From NCBI RefSeq assembly GCF_009931435.1, contig NZ_CP043414.1: a DNA stretch of 64,000 nucleotides; one strand, given 5' to 3'. How positions within the stretch are numbered: position 1 is the stretch's first letter; each line of letters opens with the position of its first letter. A model generated the notes under the pieces. The model was not told the DNA's origin. It searched no databases and saw only the letters and a program-made list of their open reading frames with translations. The DNA is from Escherichia coli. Its GTDB lineage: Bacteria > Pseudomonadota > Gammaproteobacteria > Enterobacterales > Enterobacteriaceae. Position numbers and translations under genes: made by a program. Below, in pieces: positions 13,975 to 20,500 of this stretch.

Positions 13975-14985
13975 ATGAAGGCTGCAGTTGTTACGAAGGA
14001 TCATCATGTTGACGTTACAGATAAAACACTGCGCTCACTGAAACATGGCGAAGCCCTGCTGAAAATGGAGTGTTGTGGTGTGTGTCATACCGATCTTCAT
14101 GTGAAGAATGGCGATTTTGGTGACAAAACCGGCGTAATTCTGGGACACGAAGGTATTGGTGTGGTGGCAGAAGTTGGCCCCGGCGTTACCTCATTAAAAC
14201 CAGGCGATCGCGCCAGCGTGGCGTGGTTTTACGAAGGTTGCGGTCATTGCGAATACTGTAACAGTGGTAACGAAACGCTCTGCCGTTCAGTTAAAAATGC
14301 CGGATACAGCGTTGATGGCGGCATGGCGGAAGAGTGCATCGTGGTCGCCGATTACGCGGTTAAAGTGCCCGATGGCCTGGACTCCGCGGCGGCCAGCAGC
14401 ATTACCTGCGCGGGTGTCACCACCTACAAAGCAGTAAAACTGTCAAAAATTCGTCCAGGACAGTGGATTGCTATCTACGGTCTTGGCGGTCTGGGCAACC
14501 TCGCCCTGCAATACGCGAAAAATGTCTTTAATGCAAAAGTGATCGCCATTGATGTCAATGATGAGCAGTTGAAACTGGCAACCGAAATGGGTGCAGATTT
14601 AGCGATTAACTCACGCACCGAAGACGCCGCCAAAATTGTGCAGGAGAAAACCGGTGGCGCTCACGCAGCGGTGGTGACAGCGGTAGCTAAAGCTGCGTTT
14701 AACTCAGCGGTCGATGCCGTTCGTGCAGGCGGTCGTGTTGTGGCTGTCGGTCTGCCGCCGGAGTCTATGAGCCTGGACATCCCACGGCTGGTGCTGGATG
14801 GTATTGAAGTGGTCGGTTCGCTGGTCGGCACGCGCCAGGATCTCACCGAAGCCTTCCAGTTTGCCGCCGAAGGTAAAGTGGTGCCAAAAGTTGCCCTGCG
14901 TCCGTTAGCGGACATCAACACCATCTTTACTGAGATGGAAGAAGGCAAAATCCGTGGCCGTATGGTGATTGATTTCCGTCGCTAA
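13975..14985 (+). CDS. adhP: Alcohol dehydrogenase, propanol-preferring (Zn-dependent)
   Basis: Track ORF 13945-14985; start ATG 13975 ([12 protein letters not shown]...) gives 336 aa; GHEGIG zinc-ADH motif. Confidence 0.93.
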
Positions 14986-14994
14986 GAGGCCTTT

Positions 14995-15030
14995 GCTGCG
15001 ACTGCCATGTTTGAGTCGCAGCCTGTTTTG
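14995..15030 (+). terminator. Rho-independent terminator after adhP
   Basis: gctgcgact ... agtcgcagc stem followed by ctgtttt. Confidence 0.5.
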
Positions 15031-15170
15031 CGAGACGCTTTCCGCAATTTCACTCTTCTTCTTTTCCTCCCCCATCTTTCCTCTCACAATTCACGAAAAC
15101 GTAGCGAAATTTGTTGCGCTGCACGGAACAACAGTGATAGTGTTCCTTTCGAAGGAACAAGGATGAAGAG

Positions 15171-15449
15171 ATGATAATGAATTTCAGACACAAGGGATTG
15201 CGTGACTTGTTTCTTCTCGGCAAAACCTCCGGCGTTATACCGACGCAAATCAAACGATTACGCCACCGACTCGCTGTGATTGATGCAGCAAGCTGTCTTG
15301 CTGATCTCGATATGCCCGGTTACCGACTACACCCGTTAAGCGGCGATCGTGATGGAATTTGGGCGATATCTGTCTCGGGCAACTGGCGAATCACATTTGA
15401 ATTCGTCAATGGCGATGCATACATACTGGATTACGAGGACTATCACTGA
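15171..15449 (+). CDS. HigB-family (plasmid-maintenance killer type) toxin
   Basis: 92 aa; sequence pattern ([10 protein letters not shown] ... [20 protein letters not shown]) typical of HigB toxins; stop overlaps start of downstream HTH gene. Confidence 0.7.
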
Positions 15450-15733
15450 TGAAAATGGCCAATCATCCCCGCCCGGGGGACATTATTCAGGAATCACTGG
15501 ACGAACTTAATGTCAGCCTGCGCGAGTTTGCCAGAGCAATGGAAATTGCGCCCTCAACGGCAAGCCGATTGCTGACCGGAAAAGCCGCGTTGACGCCAGA
15601 AATGGCGATTAAACTTTCCGTGGTGATCGGCAGTTCGCCGCAAATGTGGCTGAATCTACAAAACGCCTGGAGTCTGGCAGAGGCAGAAAAAACGGTAGAT
15701 GTGTCGCGATTACGCCGTCTGGTTACGCAATAA
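15449..15733 (+). CDS. yddM: HigA-family HTH (XRE-type) antitoxin / putative regulator
   Basis: 94 aa; HTH region [34 protein letters not shown]; toxin-first HigBA arrangement; gene symbol from K-12 synteny (memory). Confidence 0.7.
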
Positions 15734-15785
15734 AAAAATGGCACCTTATAAAGCGCCATTTGAAACTGATGGCAAACGCAACATT

Positions 15786-15885
15786 GCCTGATGCGCTACG
15801 CTTATCTGACCTACACGTTCACTGCAATCTATTGGATTTGAACGGTTTGTAGGCCGGATAAGGCGTTCACGCCGCATCCGGCATG
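15786..15885. repeat. REP/BIME palindromic element cluster
   Basis: gcctgatgcgctacgcttatc... and gtaggccggataaggcgttcacgccgcatccggca match the classic REP consensus. Confidence 0.65.
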
Positions 15886-15913
15886 AATAAAGCCTACGTT
15901 GTCTACAATATGA

Positions 15914-15939
15914 AAATGGCGCCTTTTACAGCGCCATTT
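15914..15939 (-). terminator. Rho-independent terminator downstream of fdnI
   Basis: aaatggcgc-loop-gcgccattt hairpin; on minus strand followed by T-run. Confidence 0.5.
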
Positions 15940-15961
15940 TCAGCTTAAAGTTCAAAAGAGA

Positions 15962-16615
15962 TTATATCCCTTCTTCACTCTCTTTTTTCGCTTCTGCCTT
16001 TTCGATTTCACGATACCAGCGTGGATGGTGTTTCTTCGCCCAACGACGGCTCACCTTCCCTTCGATCATCCCTTTAATCGACCCTTTCACCCAGAATGCC
16101 ATATACATATGGATCAGGATGGCGTGGATCAGGATGATACCCGCAGCCGCGTGAATAAACAGGCTATAACGGACAACCTGTATCGGGAAGTACTGCGCAA
16201 AGTACGGACGCCAGATAATCACCCCGGTTACCAGCAGCACGAAAATCATGCTCATGATCGACCAGAACATCATCTTTTGCCCGGCGTTGTACTTACCAAC
16301 ATCCGCCACTTTGTGTTCATTGCCTTTTAATACTTCGACAATGTTCAACAGCCACGGAATATCTTTCTTATCCGGGATGTTGTGATGCACAAAACGCACA
16401 AACATAAACATCAGCGCGACGAAAATCGCAATGCCGAAGAACGGGTGCAAAATGCGTCCCATCTGCGGCGTACCGAAGGTTTGTGTCAGCCATTGCAGCG
16501 TCGGGAAGAAGAACGAAATCCCGGACAGCGCTACCAGGAAGAAGCAAATCACCACGGTCCAGTGACAGGCGCGATCAATAAACTTGGTGCGCACAATCAT
16601 TTTCGACTTACTCAT
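15962..16615 (-). CDS. fdnI: Formate dehydrogenase-N gamma (cytochrome b556) subunit
   Basis: Track ORF 15962-16657; start ATG at 16615 ([19 protein letters not shown]...) gives 217 aa; overlaps fdnH stop. Confidence 0.9.
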
Positions 16616-17504: not shown

Positions 17505-20500
17505 TTACGCCTTCTCGATGTTGACTAAGAACGCTTTATATTCCGGCGTTTGCGAGTTTGCATCACCGACATTCGGCGTCAGAGTGTTAGCGATATAACC
17601 TTTACGCGCGACACCCTCAAAGCCCCAGTGGATTGGAATACCCACCGTTTCAACCTGCTGACCGTTTACATTCAGTGGTTTCAGACGGCGCGTTACCACA
17701 GCCACCGCGCGGATAAAGCCACGCTTGCTGGAGACAGTGACACGATCGCCATTGGCAATGCCTTTCGCCGCCGCCAGCGTTTCGCTGATTTCCACAAACT
17801 GTTCCGGCTGAGCAATTGCGTTGAGCAACGCGTGCTTGGTCCAGGTGTGGAAGTGCTCGGTCAGACGGTAGGTCGTACCCACATACGGGAACTGCTCTTT
17901 TTTACCCATCCGCAGCGCGTCTTGTTCATACAGACGAACCACCGGGTTAGACACCACGTTCGGATGCAGCGGGTTAGTGCCCAGCGGCGTTTCAATTGGC
18001 TCGTAGTGTTCCGGGAACGGACCTTCCGCCATTTTGTTGATGGCAAACAGGCGTCCCATCCCTTCCGGCTGCATGATAAACGGCCCGGTTGGCGTACCCG
18101 GTGCGGCATTGCCGAAGTCCGGAATATCGTTACCCGTCCACTTGCTGCCGTTCCACTGGATCAGCATCCGTTTCGGATCCCAAGGTTTACCGTTGATATC
18201 CGCCGAAGCACGGTTGTACAGCACGCGACGGTTGAGCGGCCACGCCCAGGCCCATCCCAGCGTATTCCCCAGACCGGACGGGTCGGAGTTATCGCGGTTG
18301 GCCATCTGGTTGCCCTGCTCTGTCCAGCTACCGGTGTAGATCCAGCAAGAAGATGCGGTTGTACCGTCATCACGCAGATGCGCAAAGCTACTCAGCAACT
18401 GCCCTTTCTTCGCAATCAGTACGCCATTAGCGTCATAGAGATCTTCCAGCGCATAGCCGTTATTCTCTTTCGCCACTTCGTCAGACTGCGGTTCGTGCGG
18501 CTGCTTGTAGTTCCAGCTCATCTTCATCAGCGGTTCTACGCCTTTACCACCTTCGGCCTGGTACAGCTCGCGCAGATGATGGTAGATACCCGCCAGAATT
18601 TCGCCGTCATTACGCGCTTCGCCCGGCGCATCCTGACCTTTCCAGTGCCACTGCAACCAGCGACCGGAGTTAGCGATAGAACCATCTTCTTCGGCAAAGC
18701 AGGTCGAAGGCAGACGGAATACTTCAGTCTGAATAGACGCCGGATCGACATCGTTCGACTCGCCGTGGTTCTGCCAGAAGGTGGAGGTTTCAGTCACCAG
18801 CGGATCGATAACCACCATGTACTTCAGCTTGCTCAGGCAGCTCACCACTTTGTTTTTGTCCGGGAAGGACGCAACCGGGTTAAAGCCCTGGCAGAAATAA
18901 CCGGTGACTTTACCTTCATCCATCATGTTGAAATACTTGATGACGTCGTAGGTCTGGTCCCACTTGGGCAGCCAGTCGTAGCCCCAGTTGTTCTCTTTCT
19001 GCGCAGCATCGCCGTAGAAAGATTTCATCAGGCTAACGAAGAACTTCGGATAGTTGCTCCAGTAGTTCACCTGATCAGCCAGCGTCGCTTTCGGCGTGTT
19101 CGCTTCCAGATACGACTGCAAATCAACCTGTTTTTCTGACGGCAGCGTCAGATAACCCGGCAGGCTGGTAGAGAGCAGACCTAAGTCAGTCAGGCCCTGA
19201 ATGTTGGAGTGACCACGCAATGCGTTCACGCCGCCACCAGCCATACCCATGTTACCGAGCAGCAACTGGATCATCGCCATAGTACGGATGTTCTGCGCAC
19301 CCACGGTGTGTTGGGTCCAGCCCAGCGCGTACAGGAAGGTGGTTGTGCGATCCGGCGCGCTGGTGGAGGCCAGCACTTCACATACTTTCAGGAAGTCAGC
19401 TTTTGGCGTACCGCAGATGTTTTCTACTACGTCCGGCGTGTAACGGGAAACGTGCGCTTTCAGCAAGTTCCACACACAGCGCGGATGGGTCAGTGTTTCA
19501 TCGCGTTTCGCATAGCCATTTTCATCGAACTGATAGTTCCAGGACGACTTATCGTACTGACGTTTTTCAGCGTCATAACCGCTGAACAGGCCGTCTTCAA
19601 AAGTAAAATCATCACGCACCAGCAGGCTGGCGTTGGTGTAATGCTTAACGTATTCGGCGTTGATCTTGTTGTTTTCGATCAGGTAGCGCAAAACGCCAGA
19701 CAGGAACGTAATGTCCGTACCGGAACGAATAGGTGCGTAGATATCCGCCACAGAAGCGGTACGCGTAAAACGGGGATCGACAACGATCAAGGTTGCATCG
19801 TTGTTGTTTTTCGCTTCCATCGCCCAGCGAAAACCGACGGGATGCGCTTCAGCAGCGTTACCGCCCATCACCATTACGACGTTAGCGTTTTTGATATCCA
19901 CCCAGTGGTTGGTCATTGCACCGCGACCAAATGTTGGAGCAAGACTTGCTACCGTTGGTCCGTGTCAGACGCGCGCCTGGTTGTCTACCGCCAGCATCCC
20001 GAGGGAGCGGGCAAATTTCTGTGTCAGCATCCCGGTTTCGTTGCTGGCACCGGAAGCACACAGCATACCGGTAGAAAGCCAACGGTTTACCGTTACGCCC
20101 TGCTCATTCTTTTCAATAAAGTTAGCGTCACGGTCTGCCTTCATCAGCTTCGCAATGCGGGAGAATGCTTCTTCCCAGCTAATGCGCTGCCATTTGTCAG
20201 AACCTGGCGCACGATATTCCGGGTAGCGCAGACGGTTTTCGCTGTTGACGTAATCCAGCAATCCGGCCCCTTTCGGGCACAGCGCACCACGGCTTACCGG
20301 ATGATCCGGGTCACCTTCAATGTGATAAATCGCTTCTCTGGCGTTTTTCGCGCCATCACCCAGGCTATACATCAATAGCCCGCAACCTACGGAACAGTAT
20401 GTACAAGTGTTACGGATCTCTTTCGCGCGTAATAATTTGTAGTTTCGCGCCTGAGCCAGTGCTTGCTTCGGGGCAAAGCCCAATGCCGCGACTGTTGTTC

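Follow-up and report, generated by a model that had tools for sequence, protein, structure and literature searches.

A chromosomal HigBA-type toxin-antitoxin pair beside fdnI in Escherichia coli and the decay of its toxin gene

Two small overlapping genes located between adhP and fdnI in Escherichia coli very probably constitute a type II toxin-antitoxin operon that is chromosomal and belongs to the classic HigB-HigA (Rts1) family. Both are intact in the window, by which we mean the whole 64,000-nucleotide stretch of E. coli DNA analysed here, but about three quarters of sequenced E. coli, K-12 and O157:H7 among them, no longer have the toxin ORF. The scores that the two proteins obtain against the family models PF05015 and TIGR02607 (see below) show that the arrangement of the two ORFs is not a product of chance.

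The window is 98.9% identical over 24 kb to E. coli strain R32_14_1F, and its genes follow the order maeA, adhP, the two small ORFs, REP elements and, on the opposite strand, fdnI-fdnH-fdnG (table 1). The toxin gene comes first and, as the preliminary description had it, overlaps the gene for the helix-turn-helix (HTH) protein by a single nucleotide: the junction reads TAT CAC TGA TG, with the toxin stop codon at 15447-15449 and the antitoxin ATG at 15449-15451 (TGATG). The fdnG ORF (17505-19916, minus strand) is listed as 803 aa, while the RefSeq gene measures 3048 nt (1015 codons); the short ORF presumably reflects the in-frame TGA selenocysteine codon of formate dehydrogenase-N rather than a real truncation.

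Table 1. Features of the hig locus, with positions numbered along the window.
Feature	Position	Strand	Basis or remark
adhP intrinsic-terminator hairpin, GCTGCGACT ... AGTCGCAGC, then CUGUUUUG	14995-15022	+	inverted repeat and RNA fold
predicted operator O1, TGTTGC-N7-GGAACA, 19 bp	15112-15130	+	conserved half-sites; left half overlaps the expected -35
-10-like hexamer GATAGT	15136-15141	+	position and conservation; between O1 and O2
predicted operator O2, TGTTCC-N7-GGAACA, 19 bp	15141-15159	+	inverted repeat; conserved GTTCC/GGAAC columns
Shine-Dalgarno AAGGA	15159-15163	+	read from the sequence; 7 nt before the higB ATG
higB, toxin ORF	15171-15449	+	92 aa, ATG start; ORF listing
higA (= yddM), antitoxin ORF	15449-15733	+	94 aa, ATG start; ORF listing
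hairpin directly 3' of higA	15736-15761		inverted repeat; terminator-like on the minus strand
REP/BIME pair, two REPs inverted to each other	15801-15882		repeats and consensus
fdnI-ending hairpin	15911-15942		RNA fold

The hairpin behind adhP (folding energy -15.9 kcal/mol, z = -3.1) delimits the hig intergenic region on its upstream side, and the one directly following higA (-8.2 kcal/mol, z = -3.2) is a candidate, though a weak one, for the terminator of the hig transcript. Within the REP/BIME pair an exact REP consensus occupies 15849-15882 on the minus strand, with the partner arm at 15801-15815. A query including this pair matches a median of 37 places per genome, and an Rfam scan returned only sub-threshold matches to REP-derived RNAs, including naRNA4 in the REP region, and no RNA antitoxin or riboswitch. 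The REP/BIME pair is a neighbour of the hig module and does not belong to it. The pair of genes does lie between the adhP terminator and a REP/BIME cluster, as originally described, but the term 'REP-flanked' is only half right, because REPs occur on the fdnI side and none on the adhP side. The spacer between yddM and fdnI (15734-15961 in the window) is highly polymorphic: it spans about 50 nt without REP in EC958, Z0117 and O26, about 228 nt in the window, SF-173 and O157, and 406 nt in K-12, with an IS200C transposase present in some strains, and this variation is independent of the status of the toxin gene.

The 92-aa product of the first ORF matches the Pfam model PF05015 (HigB-like_toxin) with 66.3 bits (cut-off 27; E = 3.6e-18), its residues 4-92 corresponding to positions 2-91 of the 91-position profile, and this is its sole Pfam match at E <= 0.01; the sole match in NCBIfam is a sub-threshold one to the RelE_StbE mRNA interferase. 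In a search of PDB sequences the toxin aligns without gaps over residues 1-92 with HigB of Rts1 (4MCT_B, E = 6.1e-32); the Rts1 HigB chains of 4MCT, 4MCX, 4PX8 and 4YPB are all collinear with it over the same range (E = 6e-32 to 3e-30), and 52 of the 92 residues (56.5%) are identical. His54, Asp90, Tyr91 and His92 of Rts1 HigB have been found critical by experiment, Arg73 touches the scissile phosphate, and Asn71 adjoins His92 (PMC5027501); the alignment shows all six kept at the same positions in the E. coli toxin. The only change near the mRNA path is K57 to S, a residue of Rts1 HigB whose contact is made via the backbone (PMC5027501); besides it, the Rts1 HigB/HigA comparison gives A here for T34. 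The family search proposed in the preliminary description, HigB versus RelE/ParE, thus places the protein in HigB and not in RelE/ParE, and the toxin is predicted to be a ribosome-dependent mRNA endonuclease. The searchable literature yielded no experiment on this E. coli HigB, so that its toxicity, its neutralisation and its codon specificity are predicted by homology, and we are somewhat less sure of the full toxicity of this particular allele than of the identity of the pair. Two E. coli haplotypes of higB that we compared differ by three nonsynonymous and two synonymous changes, and some intact-looking toxin alleles may be attenuated.

The assignment of the partner is equally specific. The 94-aa protein matches the equivalog model TIGR02607 (HigA family addiction module antitoxin) with 93.7 bits (cut-off 47.7; E = 4.5e-27) and HTH_3 with 39.1 bits (cut-off 23), RefSeq names it 'yddM: HigA family addiction module antitoxin', and it is identical to K-12 YddM (b1477; WP_000781370.1). 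It is also 100% identical to the protein solved as 'antitoxin HigA' in PDB entries 2ICP and 2ICT, and so has the HigA fold, that is, an N-terminal HTH and a fully folded dimer; the literature describes 2ICP as HigA of E. coli CFT073 and both entries as HigA-like dimers (PMC6987408, PMC6393540). To Rts1 HigA it is 41% identical (33 of 81 residues, over residues 7-87; E = 1.3e-18). In the structure of the Rts1 HigB-HigA-DNA complex Ser23, Thr37, Ser39, Arg40 and Lys45 touch the operator DNA, with Arg40 making the sole base-specific contact (PMC12266136); all five residues are kept here. By these matches the protein is an HTH-XRE antitoxin and a putative autorepressor, and homology together with the co-inheritance of the two genes suggests that it binds and neutralises HigB. 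The statement in the preliminary description that the HTH gene is annotated in K-12 as a putative regulator proved correct, the gene being yddM; the doubt expressed there about the toxin partner is settled as well, in that the toxin has no K-12 annotation because its ORF is absent from that strain. K-12 YddM is listed as a putative Xre-family regulator. In a PADLOC search the toxin had no match and the antitoxin matched only generic HTH models, and these weakly, which lends no support to a catalogued phage-defence system.

Upstream of higB, an alignment of 18 loci from eight genera (Escherichia, Citrobacter, Cedecea, Buttiauxella, Pluralibacter, Chimaeribacter, Erwinia and an Enterobacteriaceae genome) reveals two dyads, O1 and O2, whose four half-sites are invariant or nearly so, whereas the N7 spacers and the flanks vary freely. 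O2 has a perfect palindromic core, TGTTCCTT-N3-AAGGAACA, and the motif TGTT[G/C]C-N7-GGAACA occurs in the 64-kb window only at O1 and O2 (0 expected). This constancy of the half-sites makes O1 and O2 probable HigA operators, a pattern to be expected of the phylogenetic footprint of a dimeric HTH repressor. The hig promoter of Rts1 is organized similarly, with two operators over the -35 and -10 elements and one HigA dimer on each (PMC12266136). A sigma-70 consensus scan of 14900-16000 gave no promoter at threshold, and the promoter assignment therefore relies on the -10-like hexamer and its conservation: GATAGT, opposite which the alignment has TATACT for Chimaeribacter and TATGAT for Erwinia, is by its position and conservation a putative weak promoter element. 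The Shine-Dalgarno motif is kept as AAGGA or AGGGA in most orthologous leaders.

By homology to Rts1 HigBA, the hig operon would be transcribed from a promoter lying between the O1 and O2 dyads and overlapping them, and a HigA dimer bound to each dyad via its HTH, with Arg40 reading a G per half-site, would repress it. HigA would also bind HigB in a HigB2-HigA2 complex and so keep the toxin inactive. Once HigA is depleted, free HigB would be expected to enter the ribosomal A site and to cleave mRNA at A-rich codons, with His54 acting as the general base and Tyr91, Asp90 and His92 on the leaving-group side; translation would then stop and growth would halt. After loss of the toxin, higA would persist as a self-regulated orphan, yddM, behind the same operators.

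This last state is the prevailing one in the species. Among 5426 complete E. coli genomes, yddM/higA is present in 5412 and is thus a core gene, but only 1330 contain higB DNA, and 4003 carry the K-12-type toxin-less junction at full length. In K-12 MC1061 and O157:H7 the distance between adhP and yddM is 145 nt instead of 463 nt, the whole toxin ORF being gone, and the net loss between O2 and the yddM ATG in the K-12 type amounts to 268 bp. MAFFT puts the ends of the deletion at two ATGAA repeats, 15177-15181 and 15449-15453 (272 bp), but a gap-tolerant alignment yields other end-points; the exact ones cannot be fixed because the short leftover leader is too diverged, and the only safe anchors are O2 at the left side and, at the right side, CACTGATGAAAATGG from 15444. 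Other strains retain a broken gene. ST131 strain EC958 and others share a 1-nt deletion at higB codon 33, annotated as 'frameshifted', and this 259-nt form makes up 16 of 40 rows sampled at even spacing from our listing of higB carriers, from which it follows that roughly 40% of the carriers have a dead toxin; strain A3, a bat isolate, has a 9-nt in-frame deletion in higB. Altogether at least four independent kinds of toxin lesion can be distinguished, and toxin decay is seen also in Citrobacter sp. FP75, C. portucalensis and Enterobacter sp. R1. Such repeated loss or breakage indicates that selection for the toxin is weak or intermittent.

The predicted regulatory sites have a history of their own. 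O1, the -10-like element and O2 are all kept in the toxin-less alleles of K-12 and O157, and O2 is kept in O26 too. In the toxin-less O26-type haplotype the O1 19-mer, 69 nt upstream of yddM, is the exact reverse complement of the K-12 copy (positions 1937-1955 of the K-12 locus, L001): K-12 has TGTTGCGTAGGAAGGAACA, and O26 RM10386, A38, SOI121 and TH9F11 have TGTTCCTTCCTACGCAACA. A small inversion inside the inverted repeat explains this reversal, which fits a site read symmetrically by a dimer. In ETEC4075, a toxin-less E. coli, 29 bp between the GAAGGAAC right half-sites of O1 and O2 have been deleted 40 nt before yddM; a single hybrid operator is left, the -10-like GATAGT is gone, and yddM may be silenced in this strain. 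The non-coding DNA before O1 and the leader after O2 are only about 55-60% identical between toxin-bearing and toxin-less haplotypes (15023-15170 of the window against L001:1898-2005 of K-12), with indels of 56 bp, 6 nt and 4 nt, a divergence as large as that from Citrobacter; despite this, yddM itself differs between the two kinds of haplotype by only 7-12 synonymous sites.

The persistence of the antitoxin invites the suggestion that the module is a decaying relic, in which the toxin is dispensable and possibly attenuated and the antitoxin is retained for a job independent of it, be it a regulon of its own or 'anti-addiction' immunity. The imbalance between the counts of yddM and higB, the retention of both operators in toxin-less alleles and the multiplicity of toxin lesions all agree with it. 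So does the conservation of YddM: 21 E. coli alleles show synonymous variation at 33 codons and nonsynonymous variation at only 4, and strains with an intact, a broken or no toxin gene share the very same protein (WP_000781370.1). Relatives of HigB with about 57-59% identity exist on a Providencia plasmid and in Escherichia phage GER2, against which an orphan antitoxin might protect, and YddM, treated as an uncharacterised Xre-family transcription factor, was picked as a candidate for ChIP-exo in K-12 (Gao et al. 2018, PMC6237786). Several observations, however, speak against the relic. The toxin of the window is intact with all its catalytic residues, and its dN/dS in the long term (0.05-0.14, see below) is not what a functionless gene would show. 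The ratio of nonsynonymous to synonymous codons in yddM is 1 : 30 for alleles with an intact toxin and 3 : 9 for those without one (Fisher p = 0.059, n = 21 alleles), which hints weakly that YddM is less constrained once the toxin is gone; ETEC4075, moreover, lacks the -10 region and one operator, and cross-neutralisation would have to work at 41% identity of the antitoxins and 57% identity of the toxins. We therefore regard the relic as a possible but rather doubtful explanation, which in any case concerns the role of the antitoxin and not the identity of the pair. Similarly tentative is the idea that a toxin-independent function has kept YddM nearly invariant after toxin loss; candidates for it are immunity against the HigB of incoming plasmids or phage-plasmids (Rts1-like or GER2-like) and control of genes beyond its own promoter. 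If true, the repeated loss of the toxin would represent adaptive streamlining, by which an addiction module is turned into a gene for defence or regulation.

A parallel case may exist elsewhere in the K-12 chromosome. PDB entry 2EBY, which we take to be the ybaQ product, matches the HigA studied here with E = 5.6e-9. K-12 possesses a second orphan antitoxin of the HigA family at about 508 kb (TA19), the toxin partner of which occurs in AIEC NRG857c and, as a pseudogene, in CFT073 (PMC7232551). Its position and its HigA-family match suggest that the K-12 TA19 antitoxin is ybaQ, and, provided that this identity is right, the TA19 locus would be the same pattern of toxin decay in another place.

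Returning to the HigBA operon as such, a cross-species scan with the antitoxin, limited to one genome per species, gave 41 loci and clarifies the age of the pair. In E. albertii and a cryptic lineage of Escherichia an intact higB-like ORF lies upstream of the antitoxin gene with the same overlap and with fdnI downstream, toxin and antitoxin being 97-98% and 99-100% identical, respectively, to those of the window. The same overlap and the same downstream neighbour are found in at least 12 Citrobacter (toxin 80-87%, antitoxin 87-95%) and, further out, in Pluralibacter, Enterobacter sp. and 'Enterobacteriaceae bacterium 89' (about 60% and 75%). The orthologous pairs keep the gene order, fdnI as a neighbour and, where it is present, adhP. 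Compared with the Citrobacter orthologues, dN/dS is low for both genes (toxin 0.05-0.14, antitoxin 0.03-0.10), implying that higB and higA have both been maintained by selection since before the split of Escherichia and Citrobacter. The occurrence of the pair beside fdnI in all these taxa shows that it is ancestral and not a recent insertion into a REP slot.

The opposite scenario, a mobile addiction module recently inserted into a REP-rich intergenic site of some E. coli lineages, was implied by the preliminary description, which saw in the REP cluster a typical landing site for such modules. It could draw on the polymorphic presence of the toxin gene in E. coli, on the REP elements adjoining the pair, on a four-strain comparison in which two pathogens, AIEC NRG857c and UPEC CFT073, have the toxin gene and HS and K-12 do not (PMC7232551), and on the clinical isolates SF-173 and ST131 EC958 among strains with toxin-bearing or toxin-frameshifted loci. 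It is, nevertheless, contradicted by the synteny across genera, and the divergence of the toxin tracks taxonomy. No integrase, IS element or direct repeats flank higBA in the window, and REP content varies independently of the toxin. Close copies of higBA are not carried by plasmids or phages: the best plasmid match of the toxin is a Providencia 'higB' (56.5% identity), the best phage match comes from Escherichia phage GER2 (58.7%), and of the three matches above 90% in the plasmid collection at least one is a 4.9-Mb chromosome-sized record. Alleles without the toxin still have the hig operators and the antitoxin, a pattern that marks a deletion. What varies among E. coli strains is a loss of the toxin and not a gain of the module. 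Recent insertion is thus most improbable, and the landing-site interpretation has to be abandoned.

Least probable of all is that the toxin poisons gyrase in the manner of ParE instead of cleaving mRNA, as might be read from its RefSeq label ('type II toxin-antitoxin system RelE/ParE family toxin') or from its placement in the ParE_toxin superfamily cl21503 under the name ParE-2 (PMC7232551), considering that no ParE model matches it at E <= 0.01 in Pfam or NCBIfam, that its 56.5% identity is to a HigB with published ribosome-bound structures and cleavage kinetics, that it has the RNase set H54/D90/Y91/H92, and that the superfamily label spans RelE-like and ParE-like folds alike.

The HigBA pair as such is already known, because RefSeq annotates both genes in strains that bear the toxin and the orphan state of the antitoxin in K-12 was published in 2020 (PMC7232551); with the structure of the antitoxin also in the PDB, the value of the locus as a discovery is small. 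Our analyses add the assignment of the toxin to HigB and not ParE, the operator prediction, the evidence for an ancestral module and the census of toxin loss. They explain the identity of the K-12 'putative regulator' YddM, and the predicted two-copy operator TGTT[G/C]C-N7-GGAACA provides a concrete, testable target for further work on this protein. The locus is, in addition, a clean example of chromosomal toxin-antitoxin decay within one species, including whole-gene loss, an ST131-wide frameshift and an in-frame deletion, throughout which the antitoxin and the operators persist.

Among known systems, the archetype of the family, HigBA of plasmid Rts1 from Proteus vulgaris (PDB 4MCT, 4MCX, 4YPB, 6CF1), is likewise a toxin-first operon, its toxin is also 92 aa long and aligns without gaps, sharing the H54/R73/D90/Y91/H92/N71 residues, its antitoxin shares the N-terminal HTH-XRE domain with the S23/T37/S39/R40/K45 contacts, and its promoter is covered by two dyad operators, as predicted here. 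It differs in being plasmid-borne, whereas the pair described here is chromosomal and vertically inherited, in the length of HigA (104 aa against 94 aa) and in the residues K57 and T34 (S and A here); for the operator of the present pair we predict the motif given above. GraT-GraA of Pseudomonas putida (PDB 6F8S, 6F8H) belongs to the same Pfam families and is also toxin-first with a folded HTH antitoxin, but is far more distant (toxin E = 1.7e-7, antitoxin E = 1.8e-11). The HigB-HigA pair of K-12 (YgjN-YgjM) shares the name, the toxin-first order and a RelE-fold ribosome-dependent RNase; its HigA, however, has a C-terminal HTH (PMC6987408), and its locus is another one, fadH-rlmG (PMC7232551). 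PDB sequence searches with both of our proteins returned no YgjN or YgjM chain at E <= 0.01, which sets the two pairs apart as different lineages. Much closer is TA20, 'ParE-2/HigA-2', of AIEC NRG857c and UPEC CFT073, the genes of which measure 279 and 285 nt and share one nucleotide, exactly as here (PMC7232551); it is very probably the same locus, its toxin having been named ParE-2 from a superfamily match, whereas we place it in HigB (PF05015). HS and K-12 carry only the TA20 antitoxin (Bustamante and Vidal 2020, PMC7232551). The antitoxin of 2ICP/2ICT and K-12 YddM (b1477) are the same gene at the same locus, and, unlike in K-12, where the toxin ORF is missing upstream and YddM is an orphan, the cognate toxin is intact in the window.
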